This document shows positions 14,429-24,735 of a stretch of 46,882 nt of DNA, in pieces (position 1 is the stretch's first letter; each line of letters begins with the position of its first letter). The translations under genes and the position numbers were made by a program. The stretch spans positions 5,915,488-5,962,369 of the forward strand of contig NC_057753.1 of the NCBI RefSeq assembly GCF_004010195.1, given 5' to 3'. This DNA is from Chiloscyllium plagiosum (Eukaryota). The notes below the pieces were generated by a model. The model saw nothing but the letters and a program-made list of their open reading frames with translations. It had not been told where the DNA came from and made no database searches.

Positions 14429-14647
14429 GGAGGAGAAAGTGAGGTCTGCAGATGCTGGAGATCAGAGATGGAAATGTGTTGCTGGAAAAGCGCAGCAGGT
14501 CAGGCAGCATCTAGGGAACAGGAGAATCGACGTTTCGGGCATTAGCCCTTCTTCAGGAATGAAGAAGGGCTAATGCCCGAAACGTCGATCCTCCTGTTCC
14601 CTAGATGCTGCCTGACCTGCTGCGCTTTTCCAGCAACATATTTCCAT
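14429..14647. mobile_element. Penelope-derived inverted-pair mini-element with perfect 13-bp TSD
   Basis: Near-perfect inverted arms around about 14555; cgcatatatccca at 14416-14428 and 14648-14660. Confidence 0.8.
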
Positions 14648-15167
14648 CGCATATATCCCAACTCGCTCCGCTGACTGGTTCCTCAAATTACAGTGCAATC
14701 TTTACAAGCAGACCAAACACCCTCCAGGCTGCAACAAAACTGCCCAACTTCTCTCAATGTCTGTTTTTTTTTCTTGGTTAGAGGGGGAAGGATGGAATCA
14801 CTAATGTTTGGGGCTCGCCATGGTGTCCTTCCTTGCTCTGCTGATCAGTCACGACAACTGTTGCCAACTTCTCCTCATGATGCTCGGTGACGTCTCTCTG
14901 TCGTCCCCTATTGGATGGGAGCATACAGTGTTTTAATTTGGTGTATTGCATCTGTGTCTTCAACATATTATTGAAGAGAGTTGTTTCCTTAGGTAATGCC
15001 GACATTCTCTACCCGATAATGAGGGTAGGGTCCTGTCCCTGGGTTTATTACAACCATCGTCCGAACCATCCTGACACTTCTGATATTACCAGCCTTACAA
15101 TTCGGGACCCCTGGGTAGACCCTCGTTTGCCCTTTCTGTCTTGAGACTCGAAATCTCCTGGTCGTTT

Positions 15168-15399
15168 TTTTTTTTTCCCGAGCACCCATGTTGTGCGTGT
15201 GCAAGTGTGAGACACAGTGAAAGACGACGGGGGTACAAATCTTTATTCCGTTTCCACCACCAGGAAGAAAGGAAACAGCTGAGCGGCCAGTGACAAGCAG
15301 TGCCCTTCTCAGAGGGAAATGCTGAGCGATCAAACCGTGAAGGGGAGGGCAAGGATTAAATCAAAATAGAGTTGGACGGGGTAATAATACACTCCATTC
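15168..15399 (-). mobile_element. 5'-truncated L1/Tx1-clade LINE 3' end inserted in env
   Basis: Minus strand: ORF end 'GMECIITPSNSILI*', UTR with AATAAA (15242-15247), A12 tail; cgttt repeated at 15163-15167 and 15400-15404. Tx1 assignment is from recalled similarity. Confidence 0.6.
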
Positions 15400-15754
15400 C
15401 GTTTGTCCTTTTAATGGACAATTGCCAAACGTCCCCTTAAATTGAATGAATTGTGCCAATTGAGTGCTATTGACCCAATGACGTACCTCAATCCTGTACA
15501 TTTGATTCAAGTTGTCTTGCTTGCCTATCATCCAAAGTCCATAGGTGTGGGATAGTTGGTTTTGTTGAAGATTTGTGGTGTCCCCTCAATGAAAATAGTC
15601 TCAGTATCTTCATCAACTGTATCTTTACTGTCTTCTTCCTCAGCCCGACTTGTTCCATTTGAGTTTCTTCAGCTCGCACTATTAATTCTCTCATCATCTC
15701 TTTCAGCTTTTGTACATTTTCATTTACCGCAACCCCCCATGTATCTACAGAAAA

Positions 15755-15909
15755 CACAGTAGGTCATGCAGCGTCCGAGGAGCAGGAGAGTGGACATTTC
15801 GGGCAGGAGCCCTTCATCAGGCTTCTCGGATGCTGCCTGACCTGCTGTGCTTTTCCAGCACCCCACACACTCCACCCCGATCGCCAGCATCTACAGCCCT
15901 CACTTTCTC
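15755..15909. mobile_element. Penelope-derived mini-element inserted in env, 10-bp TSD
   Basis: ctacagaaaa at 15745-15754 and 15910-15919; minus core cctgatgaagggctcctgcccgaaatgtc. Confidence 0.75.
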
Positions 15910-16907
15910 CTACAGAAAATGCAGGATTAGCTCCCGTCACAATGTCCATTCAGTGTCGCCCTTTTGTGTCTCATGAAAGTGTGGTGTTCTCTGAATTTAG
16001 TGGTTCCCATGGCATCAGCAGCTTTGCACAATACTACATTGGTTAACATCGTGAACGTTTTCATTCGCCAATCTGAACACTATTCCGGCACCTGGATCCC
16101 GGAAACACTAATCCGAATGGATACGATCTCATGTTTTACATTAGAATACGATATCTCTCCTCCATTTAACAACCCTGACCCATTGACTGTTCCCTCTGTT
16201 AGGATTGGACACTTTAATTCCCTCCGGTTGTAGGAGAGGGAGTAGGACTGGAGTTGGCAGGGACGGGAGGGAAACACCATGATAGTGCTGGGCCCCCACA
16301 TCATGTGTCATATCCATGAACTGCTGCCATCTCCCAGTCACAGTTAATTAATGGTCGTCCATTTAGGGGGAGCCCAAAGGTGCTTCCACCCATGACTTCA
16401 AGTTCCTTCCTCAACATGCACCGAGCGGCTCTGTCCATCGGACATTACACACAGGCACACGTACGCGTGCGCACACACAGATGCACAGGTGCGTACACGG
16501 TCACAGACAATGTCTTTCCCTGGAAATACCATTAACCTTGCATTAAAATACATCCTTTCCATATTTGGGAGCATATTCACAGGTTCGCAGGTCATGTTAT
16601 ACAAAGCCCTGCTGTTTGTAAATTCATTGATGTCATTCCTGCTGGTCAGGTGTTCTCCTCCAGTCATTCCTTTCAGTGCCTTGCTCATCCTTCGGGATAT
16701 TATAGCCCCAATCCACAGCCACTGAGGTCCCTTCATCTTTGATTCCTTCTCTGCTCTGGAAATTAAACCTCAGCAACGAAGGGGTCACTTGATACTTGAC
16801 TTGCCTATTTTCCTTGCCGCGTGGAGGACACTCTTCTGTGTAGACCAATTTGGCCTGGATAGCCAGGAGTTGTAGTTATATTCTTACCATCTCTATCTTT
16901 CATACAA

Positions 16908-16992
16908 TTACAGTGTGGAAGCGGACCATTTGGCCCATCAAGTCCACACCAACCCTCCAAGTAGCATCCCACTAGACCCAGCACCCTACCCT
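16908..16992 (-). mobile_element. HE1-like SINE 3' fragment
   Basis: tacagtgtggaagcggaccatttggccc...aagtccacacc matches the SINE tail region. Confidence 0.7.
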
Positions 16993-17189
16993 ATAATCTG
17001 TTCTCTTTTTTTCTTGTTTGTGTTTCATTTGGTAATCTTGCCAATAAATCCTGTATCTCTTGGGTATCATTGACGTTTTCCCTTTGCATTGGGTTTTCAT
17101 TTCCACTAGACTGTGTCCAGTCATGAAACCGTCTTAAAAAATATACCATAATTCCTGAAAATAATAATATAATTCCTGAAGCTCCAAAT

Positions 17190-17320
17190 AATAGTTGAGT
17201 CTGATTTTGTATGCTTCGATTTTCGTGCCAACCACTCCTTGTACCCGAATTTTATGCTTCGTGTGTGGTCGGTCTCACGCTGACATTCCTGCCTCGATTA
17301 ATGCTCTGCACCACCTACTC
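17190..17320 (-). pseudogene. pro: Retroviral-type aspartic protease remnant
   Basis: Minus frame 'WCRALIEAGMSA*..KIRVQGVVGTKIEAYK': decayed LIDTGA-type active site followed by a flap-like V-x-G-V-x-G. Confidence 0.55.
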
Positions 17321-17576
17321 CTCGCATGCCCACCCCAGCTGCTGCCTTTACCCACAGGGGACCATCAGCCTCCTTTACCGAGGGCTGCTGTTACCCGTGG
17401 TGGGGGGAGGAGGGGGAGGTGGTCTCTGGTTCTTGGGAACTTCTCAGTGATGTTCAGTTGCCGTCGGTTGCTCATAACTCTTAGGTCTGCAGTAACTTGA
17501 TCTGTCCCACCATTGGGCCCCTTCCTCCTTTCTGTTCTAAATCCTCTCCCGGCAGTCCTCTTGTACATGTCCCTAA

Positions 17577-17926
17577 GGGCAGCGCGCTGGCTCAGTGGTT
17601 AGCACCGCTGCCTCACGGTACCAGGGACCCGGGTTCGATTCCACCTCAGGACAGAAAGTCTGTGGGGAGTTTGCACATTCTCCTTGTGTCTGCGTGGGTT
17701 TACTCTGGATGCTCTGGTTTCCTCCCACCATCCAAAGATATGTAGGTTAGGGTGGATTGGCCATGCAAATTGCCCGTGTGTTCAGGGATGTGTAGGTTCG
17801 GTGCATTAGTCGGGGTAAATGTACAATAATAGGATAGGGGAATGGGTTTGGGTGGGATACTCTTCGGAGGGTCAGCGTGGACTTGTTGAGCCGAAGGGTC
17901 TGTTTCCACACTGTAGGGATTCCATG
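17577..17926 (+). mobile_element. HE1-like SINE inserted in the gag zinc knuckle
   Basis: Full head (tggctcagtgg / ggttcgattcc), core and ctgtagggattc end. Confidence 0.9.
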
Positions 17927-18184
17927 ATTTGCCACAGTTGATACGTTTCAGGTTATCAATTATTGCTAAATTCACTACAGCGATGGCGTAGGCCTCCATT
18001 ACAGTAACACTTCTTCTCTCTGTCACCTTCGACTACGGTTCCTCCTCTCTCCCTGTCCTCCACAGCAGCTGCTTCAGTTTTCCGTGTTTTATCTATCCCA
18101 GTCGCCTAGCTTTCCAGATCGTCTCAGGTGTTGCGTGTAGATAGTCAGGACTGACTGATTGATTAGAAGGGCTAATCTTTATAC

Positions 18185-19105
18185 ATAGAGTCATAGAAGC
18201 GTACAGCACGGAAACAGACCTTTCAGTCCAACGCGTCCATGCTGACCAGATATCCCAACCCAATCTAGTCCCACCTGCCAGCACCTGGCCCATACCCCTC
18301 CAAACCCTTCCTATTCATATACCCATCCAGATGCCTTTTAAATGTTGTGATTGTACCAGCCTCCACCACTTCCTCTGGCAGCTCATTCCTACACGTACCA
18401 CCCTCTGTGTGAAAAAGTTCCCTCTTAGGTCTCTTTTGTATCTTTCCCCTCTCACCCTAAACCTATGCCCTCTGGTTCTTAACTCCCCGACCCCAGGGAA
18501 AAGACTTTGTCTATTTATCCTATCCATACTCCTCATGATTGTATAAACCTCTATAAGATCACCCCTCGGCCTCCAATGCTCCAGGGAAAACAGCCTTAGC
18601 TTAGTCAACATCTCCCTATATCTCACATCCTCCAACCTGGCAATATCCTTGTAAATTTTTTCTGAACCCTTTCAAGTTTCACAACATCTTTCTGATAGGA
18701 AGGAGACCAGAATTGCGTACAATATTCCAACAGTGGCCTAACCAATGTCCTGTACAGCCGCAACATGACCTCCCAACTCCTGTACTCAATACTCTGACCA
18801 TTAAAGTAAAGCATACCAAACGCCGCCTTCACTATCTTATCTACCTGCGACTCCACCTTCAAGGAGCTATGAACCTGCACTCCAAGGTCTCTTTGTTCAG
18901 CAACACTCCCTGGCACCTTGCCATTAAGTGTAGAAGTCCTGCTAAGATTTGCTTTCCCAAAACCCAGTACCTCACATTTATCTGAATTAAACTCCATCTG
19001 CCACTCCTCAGCCCATTGGCCCATCTGCTCAAGATCCCTTTGTAATCTGAGGTAACCCTCTTCGCACTCCACTGTACCTCCAATTTTGGTGTCACCTGCA
19101 AACTT
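18185..19105 (-). mobile_element. CR1 (HER1-like) 3' ~0.9 kb inserted in gag
   Basis: ORFs 18623-19072 'LQRDLEQMGQWAEEWQMEFN..YRTLVRPLLEYC' and 18315-18635; (ctatgact) tail. Confidence 0.92.
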
Positions 19106-19947
19106 TCAGAGGAATGTATTTGAACTTAACTGGAGCAACGGGCGCCTGCAGGCAATGGAGTCCATTTCCTTGGCCATGGCCACACTCTGTGGTTTCCTCC
19201 AAATGGTACACTCCAGTCAGTGACATCTCTGCTTCCCCTTCAGGTGGCGAGGCTCCTGAACACATTCCGAGGGCTGGTGACGCTGGACCTGCCAGTGTTA
19301 TTTTAATCATTCTCTGCTTCTCTAGTGATTGATTTTCATGTTTTATTAGTTCCACGTGAACTCCGAAAACTAACATTAAGGCCTCATCTTCCTACCCCTT
19401 TTTATCCTGTGACTCTCTTTGCATGTTAGGTGGCTTTGCGGGATTCCAGTTTTCTTTAATCATTCGATCAACTTCTCATTTCTATCTGCCAGAAATCGGG
19501 GGAAGGATGCTTCAGGCAACCCCCCCCCCACCAAAATCTAATTCTCCCTCTGCTGTCATGGCCATTATTACAAGGGAGCGAGTGGAAAGATCTCAAGGAT
19601 CCATGACTCAAAACAAAAACGTGCACGCACACACAGACCATGGTGAACGCTACATATGTACCTGTGGTCCGATTCTTGCCTGCTGTGCTATACCAGACTG
19701 CACATCAATTCCATCCACATCGCAGGGTGAATAACCACACCTTCGTACACTCATCAGATTCTCTTCTGCGTCCTCCTGCAGGAGTACCTGAGCCAAATGT
19801 CCTCCCAGCCCCCTCTGTAGGACATGGTGCTCCTCAGCCCTGGAGGTCTTAACACGCTGGCCCGACAGGGTATTGTGACCAACCCCACTTGCTATCCTGA
19901 TGTCCCCACTCTTTCAGAATGAATGAACTCAGTTTCAGGTACAGTAC

Positions 19948-20265
19948 GGGCGCGGTGGCTCAGTGGTTAGCACTGCGGCCTCACAGCACTAGGGTCCCAG
20001 GTTCGATTCCAGCCTCTGGTGTCTGTCTGTGTGGAGTTTGCACATTCTCCCCATGTTTGCATGGGTTTCCTCCGGGTGCTCCAGTTCCCTCCCACAGTCC
20101 AAAGATATGCTGGTTAGGTGAATTGGCCAGGCTAAATTGCCCATAGTGTTAGGTGCATTAGTCAGAGGGAATTTGGTCTGGGTGGGTTACTCTTCGGAGT
20201 GTCGGTGTGGACTGGTTGGGCCGAAGGGCCTGTTTCCACACCTTAGGGAATGTAATCTCATCTAA
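19948..20265 (+). mobile_element. HE1-like SINE
   Basis: A/B boxes, core, aatct-type tail. Confidence 0.88.
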
Positions 20266-20354
20266 TACCGACGTAACCTGACTGCCTATTTGTCTGTGGT
20301 ACTGCTCCCCACATCCTGCTCGCAGTGACAAACTGTTGGGGTGGAATGACCAAA

Positions 20355-20624
20355 TGTTTCGCTTGACCCCCAGGACTCCATTTCCAGAGGTTAGTGGGAA
20401 GAAACCCTCTGAAAATCCAGACAGCTCTTCAGTCAACAAAGGAAAGCATCCATTTTTTTATACACTTGTTTCATCCCGCCTTTAGCATTTACAAACCAGT
20501 CATGGTATTGGTTACAGAGATTTACAATTCAACTTAGTCATGTTACCCAACAGCTGGAGACGGTCCTCCATGGGCTCATGATCTTTCCCAGACTCTCTGA
20601 TCTCCCTTTTTGGGGCTTCTTACA
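20355..20624 (-). repeat. Candidate 5' LTR of the retroelement
   Basis: Minus strand starts TGTAAG, has TATAAA at 20462-20457, ends AAACA and is followed by TTTGGTCATTCC (possible PBS). No second copy and no AATAAA seen. Confidence 0.35.
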
Positions 20625-20626
20625 AT

Positions 20627-20933
20627 TAGATTAGATTCCCTACAGTATGGAAGCAGGCCCTTCAGCCCGACAAGCCCACACCAACCCTGCAAAGGGAAAC
20701 CCACCCAGACCCATTCCCCCACCCCATAAGTACATTAGTCAGGAGTAATTAACATTAGGGGCAATTTAGCATGGGCAATTCACCTCTCCTACACCTCTTT
20801 GGATTGTGGGAGGAAACCCACGCAGCCACAGGGAGAATGTGCAAACTCGACACAGACAGTCGCCCGAGGCCTGAATTGAATCCTGGTCCCTGGCGCTGTG
20901 AGGGAGCGGTGCTAACCACTGAGCCACTGTGCC
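20627..20933 (-). mobile_element. HE1-like SINE
   Basis: Reverse-orientation head, core and tail; tacaat at both flanks (20621-20626, 20941-20946). Confidence 0.88.
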
Positions 20934-20953
20934 ATCTGAATACAATAGACATG

Positions 20954-21100
20954 GTAGGACACCCCAGGATAAAGATAGGGATATCCAGTTAAAACAAAAG
21001 CATGACGCAGCTGGAAATTGTATTCATGTATGTTCATTCCCAGCTCTATCATGTTTTTGTTTTAACTAGATATCCCTATCTTTATCCTGGGGTGTCCTAC
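20954..21100. mobile_element. Palindromic MITE-like hairpin
   Basis: gtaggacaccccaggataaagatagggatatc(c)agttaaaacaaaa... pairs with ...ttttgttttaact(a)gatatccctatctttatcctggggtgtcctac; TA at both ends. Confidence 0.8.
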
Positions 21101-21400
21101 AATGTTCTCATTCAAACCACATTCCAGTGTCTGCGAGTTTCTGTGCATTGGGGCTGCTTTTACTGTTTGAGACTGGTCTTCCCTCATAATTTATTCGAAT
21201 AGTTTCCTCTAGTGCCTTCAGTGTTTTTTCTTCAGTGTTGGTGAATCTATAACTACTTCAGAATCTGTGTCGATGATTATTCGACAGATCTTAACTAAAA
21301 CCTACGATTAATATTGGAGACAGGATTCACTAATTAAACCCAGTGTGAAACGCCTTGTGTATAAATAACTGCAGCTGCCTATTCCGTCTCAGTGCTGTTA

Positions 21401-22335
21401 TTGAATTGAATTGAATTGAATTTATTGTCTCGTGTGCCGAGGCACAGTGAAAAGCTTTGTCTTGCGAGCAATACAGGCAGATCACAGAGTTAAGTAGCAC
21501 AGATAAGTAAATAATAGGGAAACAGCGGCAAAAACAAAAACACAGGGACAGACAAATGTTAAGAGTTTGAGAGTCCATTCAGTATTCTAACAGTTGGGTA
21601 GAAACTGTTGCACTTTGTGATTGTCCGGGCCGAGTTCACCACTCTCTGTAACCGTCTCCGATCTTGAATGGTACAGTTGCCATACCAGGTAGTGATACAT
21701 CCAGACAGAATGCTCTCGATGGTGCACCTATAAAAGTTGGCAAGGGTATTCACCGTCACGGCAAATTTCCTCAGCTGCCTGAGGAAGAAGAGACGTTGGG
21801 CCTTTGTGACCAGTACATCCACATGAAGAGTCCAAGAAAGCTTGTTGTAAATGAGCACTCCCAGGAGCTTGACACTCTCTACTCTAACACCACAGAGGTT
21901 TAATATGTGTCGGGGGGCATGCATAACTTCCCGCTAAAGTCAATAATGAGTTCCTTGCTTTTGCTGGCATTGAGAGCTAGGTTGTTCTCAGTGCACCATT
22001 TTTCCAGGTCTTCCACCTCCCGTCTGTAGTCTGTTTTTTCATCATCTGAGATTCGACCGACTATGGTAGTGTCATCAGTGAACTTGTAAATGGCATTAGT
22101 CTGGTATTTGGTGATGCAGTCATGGTTATACAGTGAGTACAGTAGGGGGCTGAGTGCACACGCCTGGGGGGGGGGGGGGTTCCAGTGTTGAGTTTTAGTG
22201 AGGATGAAATATTGACCCCAATCTTCACTGATTGTGGCCTGTGGGTCAGGATCCAGTTGGAGAGAGTGGGGCTTTGTCCGAGATCACTAAGTTTAGTAAT
22301 CAGTCTCAAGGAGATAATAGTGTTGAAGGCTGAAC
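21401..22335 (-). mobile_element. Rex1/Babar-type LINE, 5'-truncated
   Basis: '[17 protein letters not shown]' and 'KAQRLFFLRQLRKF..NFYRCTIESILSGCITTWYGNC..LQRVV'; (caatt)n tail; ctgtta at both flanks. Confidence 0.85.
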
Positions 22336-22484
22336 TGTTACCTTGGGTCCTCAAAGCAACAATCGCTCGTGTGAAGGCTACACAAAGCAAATATTTTCCA
22401 AGCTTTTTATCTACGGTCAGCCATGTTCTGTTGGTAATGCCATGGGTAAGCACTGGCCAGGTTATCCTTTTGCTCCTAATATAC

Positions 22485-23633: not shown

Positions 23634-24735
23634 GGATGGAAAAGGAAGACTTCCGTGTGGGAACATCTAACGCAACATCACGCCAGCAACCTGAAAGAGA
23701 CGTTCAGTGTATCAGAACCTGAACGTAATTAAATTTTCAACATGACAAAAAAAAATTTGCATTCCCTGTGATGGGAAAGAAGGCATGTCCTCTGTGTGTA
23801 GTCACGACTTCAGTTGATCATCTGGTTTATAAGAACAGGTGGATTTGCAGTCGGGCAACTGAAACCAATCAACACGTCAGTACCTCACAGATAAAATTAT
23901 TGTGACCTGCAATCGTTGGATATTTAACAATGGAAGATAAAAGCTCTGTTCACAGAGCGGAGGAAACATGCACGTGTTGTATGTGTGGACAGTGTTTCAC
24001 CAGATCATCCAACCTTTCAAGGCACAAGTGCAGTCACGCTGAGGAGAATATATTGAAATGTGGCCAAGCAGTCCAATCCCCATCTGAGCTGGAGACTCTC
24101 CAACCCAGTCAGACAGAAGACAAACTGTTCAGCTGCTCAGAGTGTGGCAAGGGGTTTACTCAGTCATCTGACCTGCTGAAACACCAGCGGGTTCACACCG
24201 GGGAGAGACCATTCATCTGCTCCAAGTGTGGGAAGGCATTCACCGATTCGTCCAATTTGCTGAAACACCGACGCGTGCATAGCGACGAGAGACCTTTTAA
24301 ATGCCCAGAGTGCATGAAGTGCTACAAAAGTTCCCGAGAACTGATGTCCCATCAGCGTGTTCACACGGACGAGAAACCGTTCAAGTGCTCTCACTGTGGG
24401 ACTGGCTTCAGGTGGTCCTCTCACCTCATTGTACACCAGCGCGTACACACTCAGGAGAGGCCATTTACCTGTCCTGAATGCGGCAAGGGATTCACTCAGT
24501 CATCAAACCTACTGACCCATCAGCAAGTTCATACTGGAGAGAGACCATTCACCTGTTCGGAGTGTGGGAAGGGATTCACTCACTCAACTGCTTTGCTGAG
24601 ACACCGCCAAGTTCACGAGTAATGACAGTGATTGGATTTTCTGTCATATACAAAACTGAAGCATGTTCACTGGGGCCTGTTTGTTCATCAGCTCCAGCCC
24701 GGTGTTGATTTTTCGGGGTAAAAGTCAAATAAGTC
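23634..24735 (+). other. Putative terminal exon containing the zinc-finger CDS
   Basis: Long polypyrimidine tract and aag| acceptor (AG 23632-23633); 3' end uncertain (only AATAAG near 24728). Confidence 0.55.
23930..24622 (+). CDS. C2H2 (Kruppel-type) zinc-finger protein, 230 aa, 7 intact fingers + 1 degenerate, no KRAB/SCAN/BTB visible
   Basis: Repeated CxxC-x12-HxxxH with TGERPF-type linkers; good start context acaATGg; uninterrupted frame. Confidence 0.93.

Follow-up and report, generated by a model that had tools for sequence, protein, structure and literature searches.

A broken envelope gene with a predicted F-protein-like fold in a decayed, probably SnRV-like endogenous retrovirus of the shark Chiloscyllium plagiosum

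The window analysed here, a 46,882-nucleotide stretch of the Chiloscyllium plagiosum genome, carries a decayed provirus that spans about 22446-14922 on the minus strand, with env cut off at 14922 (Table 1). Its 5′ LTR pieces are split by later insertions; by blastn they match both ends of sister elements (L032; L026 together with L027) and also the DNA 3′ of env in L030, L033, L034 and L035. A LINE fragment (18150-19105) separates the gag 5′ remnant from the gag 3′ end, and a SINE (17577-17930) parts the two halves of the decayed gag zinc knuckle. The pol deletion point falls near 17190-17230, and tblastn found no match to RT, RNase H or integrase in the window. This copy later lost pol and its 3′ end and received SINE and LINE insertions. 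Elsewhere in the window, a C2H2 zinc-finger array with an 84-nt period occupies 23906-24622 on the plus strand, its linkers read by eye.

Table 1. Features of the decayed provirus and its env remnant (window coordinates).
Feature	Position	Strand	Basis
5′ LTR remnant, three pieces (20264-20626, 21009-21400, 22335-22446)	20264..22446	-	
Leader and gag 5′ remnant	19055..19944	-	blastn to L027, L029, L032
gag 3′ end, then protease-side DNA	17189..18127	-	blastn to L029, L026
Post-integrase spacer and env start region, interrupted by SINE fragment (16908-16994)	16635..17227	-	blastn to L026, L028, L034, L035; downstream of integrase remnants in L028
env 5′ part: decayed N-terminal Cys-rich head, F2-like segment, furin site	15933..16634	-	tblastn (P0003 aa 46-92 and 165-261; P0015 aa 52-270); profile 34.5 bits
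Insertion 1: short interspersed repeat, 10-bp target duplication	15755..15909	.	repeat and duplication analysis
env middle: HR1-like heptad piece and helical domain after it, two frames	15403..15754	-	P0003 aa 269-317 and 337-405 (tblastn); profile 33.5 bits
Insertion 2: high-copy repeat unit with A-run, flanked by 12-bp duplication	15136..15399	.	
env piece with F1-like core beta strands; element truncated here	14922..15135	-	P0003 aa 395-458

The env remnant consists of five minus-strand pieces, spread over three frames within 14920-16736 and collinear with residues 46-458 of P0003, an intact 714-aa shark Env, at 31-43% identity (tblastn; E 1.7e-15, 6.7e-14 and 1.6e-9, plus one weak piece at 0.018). 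When the profile of the Env family was run on the 46.9-kb window, three env pieces scored 34.5, 33.5 and 16.1 bits, with no other match; the heptad piece stands at -1 against this profile. Judged by sequence, the remnant is real and more than chance, given the ordered matches to P0003 and the profile scores. The copy is nevertheless dead, non-coding debris that makes no protein. The reading frame shifts near 15950 and again between 15605 and 15582, and stop codons interrupt the pieces at 16082, 14991 and 14970. Homology to sister copies stops at 14922 (blastn, 4 sister copies), and Env residues of about 460-714, with the Cys-rich domain, HR2 and TM, are absent together with the 3′ LTR.

An initial annotation of this DNA had proposed that removing two nested insertions rejoins one minus-strand polypeptide. 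The pieces are indeed in order and collinear, but they do not share one frame, lying in three with the stops and frame changes given above. The peptides quoted from env are all found on the minus strand, the RHKR furin site lies at 15960-15971, and the reported lack of CX6CC agrees with the absence of any CX6-7CC from all minus frames of 14600-17000. The reading given for the peptide directly after the furin site crosses a frame change, and the segment there described as hydrophobic is only weakly so in an intact relative (mean 0.39 vs 1.96 in loki Env).

The first insertion lies exactly where it had been placed, with a perfect target duplication. Its repeat family (D15) has several copies in the window, and the insert may have a hammerhead-like look. 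The second is likewise an insertion with a flanking duplication, but its bounds, given as 15168-15399, needed correction: the 12-bp duplication, with 1 mismatch, lies at 15124-15135 and 15400-15411, and the insert therefore extends over about 15136-15399. Its high-copy unit corresponds to 15168-15400 in a genome search (40 scored of 1740 candidates). An Rfam search of both inserts returned nothing real. At 14431-14658, two repeats of the first type form an inverted pair (I16) with 4 nt between them, and the second repeat often occurs elsewhere in the genome (L017-L025) as tandem arrays with about 400-bp spacing.

Relatives of this env are numerous in the same genome. At the DNA level, 15910-16900 as query has 24 matches besides self, at 63-79% identity, and a protein search with one env frame gave at least 101, among 150 scored of 175 candidates. 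They fall into an old, decayed group and a young one. Old copies are 60-72% identical to the window in nucleotides and have remnants of gag, RT, RNase H and integrase upstream of env, with gag/pol remnants in this position in L026, L028/L029, L034 and L035. In the young group, about 40% identical in amino acids to the window env piece, gag, RT, tether, RNase H, integrase and env are all present as long natural frames. Across 14 loci, the env copies of this group share 88.9-96.9% identity with L070, and LTR pairs were found at 3/5 tested loci, with 93-97% identity. The gag of these relatives carries a zinc knuckle. As primer site the young family has an 18-mer present in 17 gamma and delta reference genomes, which we take to be that of tRNA-Pro. 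Multicopy homologs linked to gag/pol, on whose existence the initial annotation had let its reading depend, are thus present in both groups.

Open frames of 1700-2100 aa in some relatives were rejected as polyproteins, being runs of N, and Pfam returned nothing on the read-through frames of one old sister copy. In two neighbouring copies (L026:4928-5800 and L028:3371-4265), 3′ LTR-like DNA is inverted with respect to its own element, unlike in five other sister copies. At L074/L075, on the same contig and 1.6 Mb off, an old env remnant adjoins a 277-aa ORF that is GPCR-like by eye. One young copy (L066:1762-4086) has env closely after gag and represents another pol-deleted form.

The Env family extends beyond this species. 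A protein search with the young Env gave 15 matches, and all those with an assigned organism are sharks: Chiloscyllium punctatum (up to 88% identity), Mustelus asterias (P0003, 61%, from a 7-member cluster), Pristiophorus and Heterodontus are among them. Among 1.84 billion representatives searched with a profile there were 64 matches; the organisms of 10 were checked, comprising 7 sharks and 3 frogs (Pelodytes, Mantella and Xenopus). The Mantella aurantiaca cluster P0109 has 16 members, most of 677 aa, and represents a frog ERV of this Env type that has expanded recently. The same Env core is combined with different N-terminal heads in other lineages of sharks and frogs (P0091, P0105, P0109 and P0098); P0091 bears an Ig-like UniRef name. 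In the Pristiophorus entry P0097, the annotation fuses an F-like env piece to a Niban-1-like protein, which may be a gene-model artefact.

Intact relatives display, from the N terminus, a signal peptide region, a Cys-rich head of about 140 aa, a Pro/Thr hinge and an F2-like segment, followed by the furin motif, an ectodomain of about 400 aa and a C-terminal TM, with no CX6CC. In the intact 714-aa Env the furin motif is at residue 249 and the TM near 656-680, and there are four sequons. No Pfam family matches the head, and an Ig fold for it is therefore unsupported here. Shark Envs have no Pfam match to Fusion_gly or TLV_coat, and Pfam and PDB sequence searches with a shark Env or a shallow alignment gave nothing meaningful. 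A genome search with Pfam PF00523 yielded 0/4 candidates, its controls being equally silent.

The core of the natural L070 Env was modelled as a monomer from a 37-row alignment (pLDDT 72.7, pTM 0.53); a full-length model from a 15-row alignment reached pLDDT 31. Foldseek found 243 PDB matches to the core model at E<=0.001. Those listed are all paramyxo/pneumovirus F proteins, including parainfluenza F, the best being RSV F at E 1.1e-10, with TM-scores of only about 0.4 and rmsd of 15-30 Å for this monomer model. Against BFVD, the matches were F proteins of Mononegavirales and baculoviruses, together with the retroviral Envs of WEHV-1 (1.6e-8), feline foamy virus (2.9e-5) and WDSV (1e-4). ESM features of the shark Env point the same way (0.94 Baculo_F/Gypsy env, 0.93 Fusion_gly). 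The initial annotation had suggested a paramyxo/pneumovirus F-like layout and a structural comparison with RSV and paramyxovirus F; the ESM features and the Foldseek results support the layout, and the comparison found its match in the predicted model. The family Env is thus predicted to have a paramyxovirus-F-type fold, and the description 'F-like' holds for the model.

Paramyxo-/pneumovirus F, baculovirus F and the errantivirus F-type Env resemble the shark protein in predicted fold and ESM features. They differ from it in sequence (8-14% identity), and the shark Env has an N-terminal head and a retroviral context. By analogy with F and foamy Env, host furin would cut the Env precursor, and the N-terminal cleavage piece would stay within the fusion core of a trimer. 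HR1 would then refold into a trimeric coiled coil and zip with HR2, leading to membrane fusion. The extra head might be the receptor-binding part, which is a guess from the same analogy.

The profile of the shark-frog Env family, built without SnRV or loki rows, links this Env to those of several other retroviruses. Loki Env, taken from two metagenome contigs that carry both loki RT and loki Env, was the top named scorer at 39-43 bits, and on this profile evidence the shark Env is homologous to it. SnRV Env scored 22.6 bits, against 3.6 for the best shuffle (300 shuffles, 120 reported), foamy Envs 2.5-19.8 and WDSV Env 11.3 (biased); gamma Envs gave no match. The best PDB sequence match to the profile is the foamy Env 8ozh (E 0.0015). 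Comparison with SnRV Env by hhalign covered 144 columns at E 0.007. The deeper profile alone finds SnRV Env, which scored 0.1 bits against a shallow Env profile, and a homolog search with SnRV Env as query gave none. On its own, SnRV Env is assigned 0.95 to F-type clusters in the Atlas, the recognition value being low. Loki Envs have weak Pfam Fusion_gly matches.

The Envs of three exogenous fish retroviruses, SnRV (L076:6131-9532), WDSV (L085:5962-9648) and WEHV-1 (BFVD), match the F-like profile or fold and have no TLV_coat match. Because SnRV, walleye epsilonretrovirus and foamy Envs all match the same profile or fold, an F-like layout is not diagnostic of lokiretroviruses. The Env tree is a star in which neither of the groupings compared is rejected (p 0.19 and 0.10).

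The lineage was examined through the pol genes of relatives, the window copy being without pol; it is tied to them through the old sister copies, by nucleotide identity, and the young family, by Env. References were viral contigs, with SnRV and WDSV identified against supplement rows of PMC7947760. The RT tree used 37 rows picked from 74 plus 2 loki, under LG+G4 without a mixture model, ERV-L/S and fish foamy-like elements lying outside the sample. SnRV is the best viral RT match among 43 loci. The shark clade (100/99) falls outside both gamma/epsilon/delta (100/98) and loki plus gypsy (97/96), in a polytomy with SnRV, foamy, eel, gar and other elements. A quick tree joined sharks with SnRV at 87 SH-aLRT, a position that is an open fork in the careful tree; in the quick tree, two old-family RT fragments nest within the shark clade, with the young family, on a long branch. 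AU tests rejected shark+loki (p=0.032) and shark+epsilon (p=0.0002) and left shark+SnRV alone (0.09), shark+foamy (0.18) and a broad SnRV-like group (0.34) unrejected. In the RNase H tree, sharks group with SnRV and three other elements, including eel (89/93), and loki plus foamy, as one group, stand apart from the rest at 99/99.

A reading as epsilon/gamma, drawn early from PDB scores, was dropped after the RT tree and the AU tests. The shark RT does not fall inside the gamma/epsilon clade (class I), and the Env is not of the gamma type, having no TLV_coat domain, no CX6CC and a TM ectodomain that is not short.

The initial annotation took the env to be loki-like; a true lokiretrovirus of sharks would have been overlooked by the 2020 screen. 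The shark family and lokiretroviruses share a homologous F-like Env with an RXKR site, HR1 and TM, as well as a tether plus RNase H; this dual RH is present in the relatives and is not loki-diagnostic, since it is common to all retroviruses. The RT and RNase H lineages differ: RT motifs of the relatives are unlike those of every loki row compared, and the tree tests above largely refute this identity. An exact-match scan of the genome, which cannot show absence, did not find the exact loki RT motif. The shark Env also differs from loki Env in its extra head of about 140 aa, its polar fusion peptide and its lack of a Pfam Fusion_gly match. In the accessible text of PMC7947760 (Wang and Han), loki hosts range from lampreys to reptiles and 0/6 chondrichthyan genomes were positive, in line with the initial annotation, in which cartilaginous fishes were missing from the host list: they had been screened and were negative. 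A shark lokiretrovirus is accordingly hardly tenable.

A fish foamy-like ERV with a shortened Env would account for the best PDB sequence match and for the RT test that leaves shark+foamy standing; foamy Env is F-like according to the portion of PMC11468914 available to us. The shared feature is the F-like core. Foamy Env, at about 990 aa, has two membrane spans and an internal receptor domain, whereas the shark Env has 714 aa and an N-terminal signal peptide. Pol differs as well, the relatives' RNase H being of MLV/SnRV type with no foamy match, and the zinc knuckle in gag also counts against this reading, which is very improbable within trees that hold no fish foamy-like reference.

A third alternative is a mosaic, in which recombination in a fish host joined an SnRV-like pol to an env, and perhaps an integrase, from a loki-lineage virus. 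Loki Env heads the named scorers, tblastn gives integrase its highest score against loki (223 bits vs 123 for SnRV), and domain swapping is reported in the part of PMC7947760 consulted. In the integrase tree (CGIN1 left out), an open group (89/92) unites the sharks with SnRV, foamy and loki, and loki is not their sister. Since SnRV's own Env is itself homologous, well above the shuffled maximum, no env swap is needed; the star-like Env tree favours neither origin, and loki Env differs in having no head domain and a hydrophobic fusion peptide. We consider the mosaic unlikely.

The window thus probably holds the broken env of a decayed, pol-deleted shark ERV with a predicted F fold, likely SnRV-like (clade Huo, class III-like) and not loki. 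SnRV is the closest viral RT to the shark family and groups with it in RNase H. The SnRV Env resembles the shark one in its match to the family profile, its long ectodomain after the furin site and the absence of CX6CC. The two are distinct in other respects: SnRV is not a supported RT sister, its Env has 1134 aa against 714 with heads that look unrelated, and the gamma/delta-type primer site of the young shark family was not found in the SnRV genome.

SnRV-like ERVs are already known from cartilaginous fish, namely the elephant shark (CmiERV lineage I; PMC4422223, as far as its accessible text goes), and this locus, taken alone, is a dead provirus of an ordinary kind. A vertebrate-wide SnRV-like clade is described in the sections seen of PMC6001957, PMC8922424 and PMC4977317, clade Huo being the name for SnRV and SnRV-like ERVs that goes with the first of these. 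The F-like fold of foamy Env is solved, and excerpts of PMC11468914 treat orthoretroviral Env as a separate fusion subclass, with no mention of loki, snakehead or epsilon in those excerpts. Further F-like cases in Retroviridae are expected in the available part of PMC12583693, and vertebrate ERVs are deferred in that of PMC13524379; the portions seen of PMC11521997, PMC10435555, PMC13709493 and bioRxiv 2024.03.17.585361 do not cover such F-like Envs. A description of SnRV or walleye-virus Env as F-like was not found in the literature searched, in which work from 2023-2024 is incompletely covered.

Published work, in the passages available of PMC9040795 and PMC11468914, places Envs of the F-like kind in loki and foamy viruses only. 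In the shark family the Env predicted to be F-like accompanies an SnRV-like pol, and profile or fold extends to the Envs of SnRV, WDSV and WEHV-1. An F-like env by itself does not identify a lokiretrovirus. It is conceivable, if somewhat short of an even chance, that the F-type Env is the ancestral retroviral envelope, inherited by loki, foamy, SnRV-like elements (shark, frog, fish) and walleye epsilonretroviruses, with the gamma-type Env a later replacement. This would contradict the independent-acquisition scenario of PMC9040795, whose accessible text finds no detectable similarity of canonical Env to loki Env and prefers independent gain. With multicopy genes that are intact and a head of its own, the shark family would then be a living link. 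With an F-like Env predicted beside an SnRV-like pol, the number of retroviral envelope gains becomes testable with intact shark and frog genes, and the wider spread of such Envs over several deep retroviral lineages is worth following.
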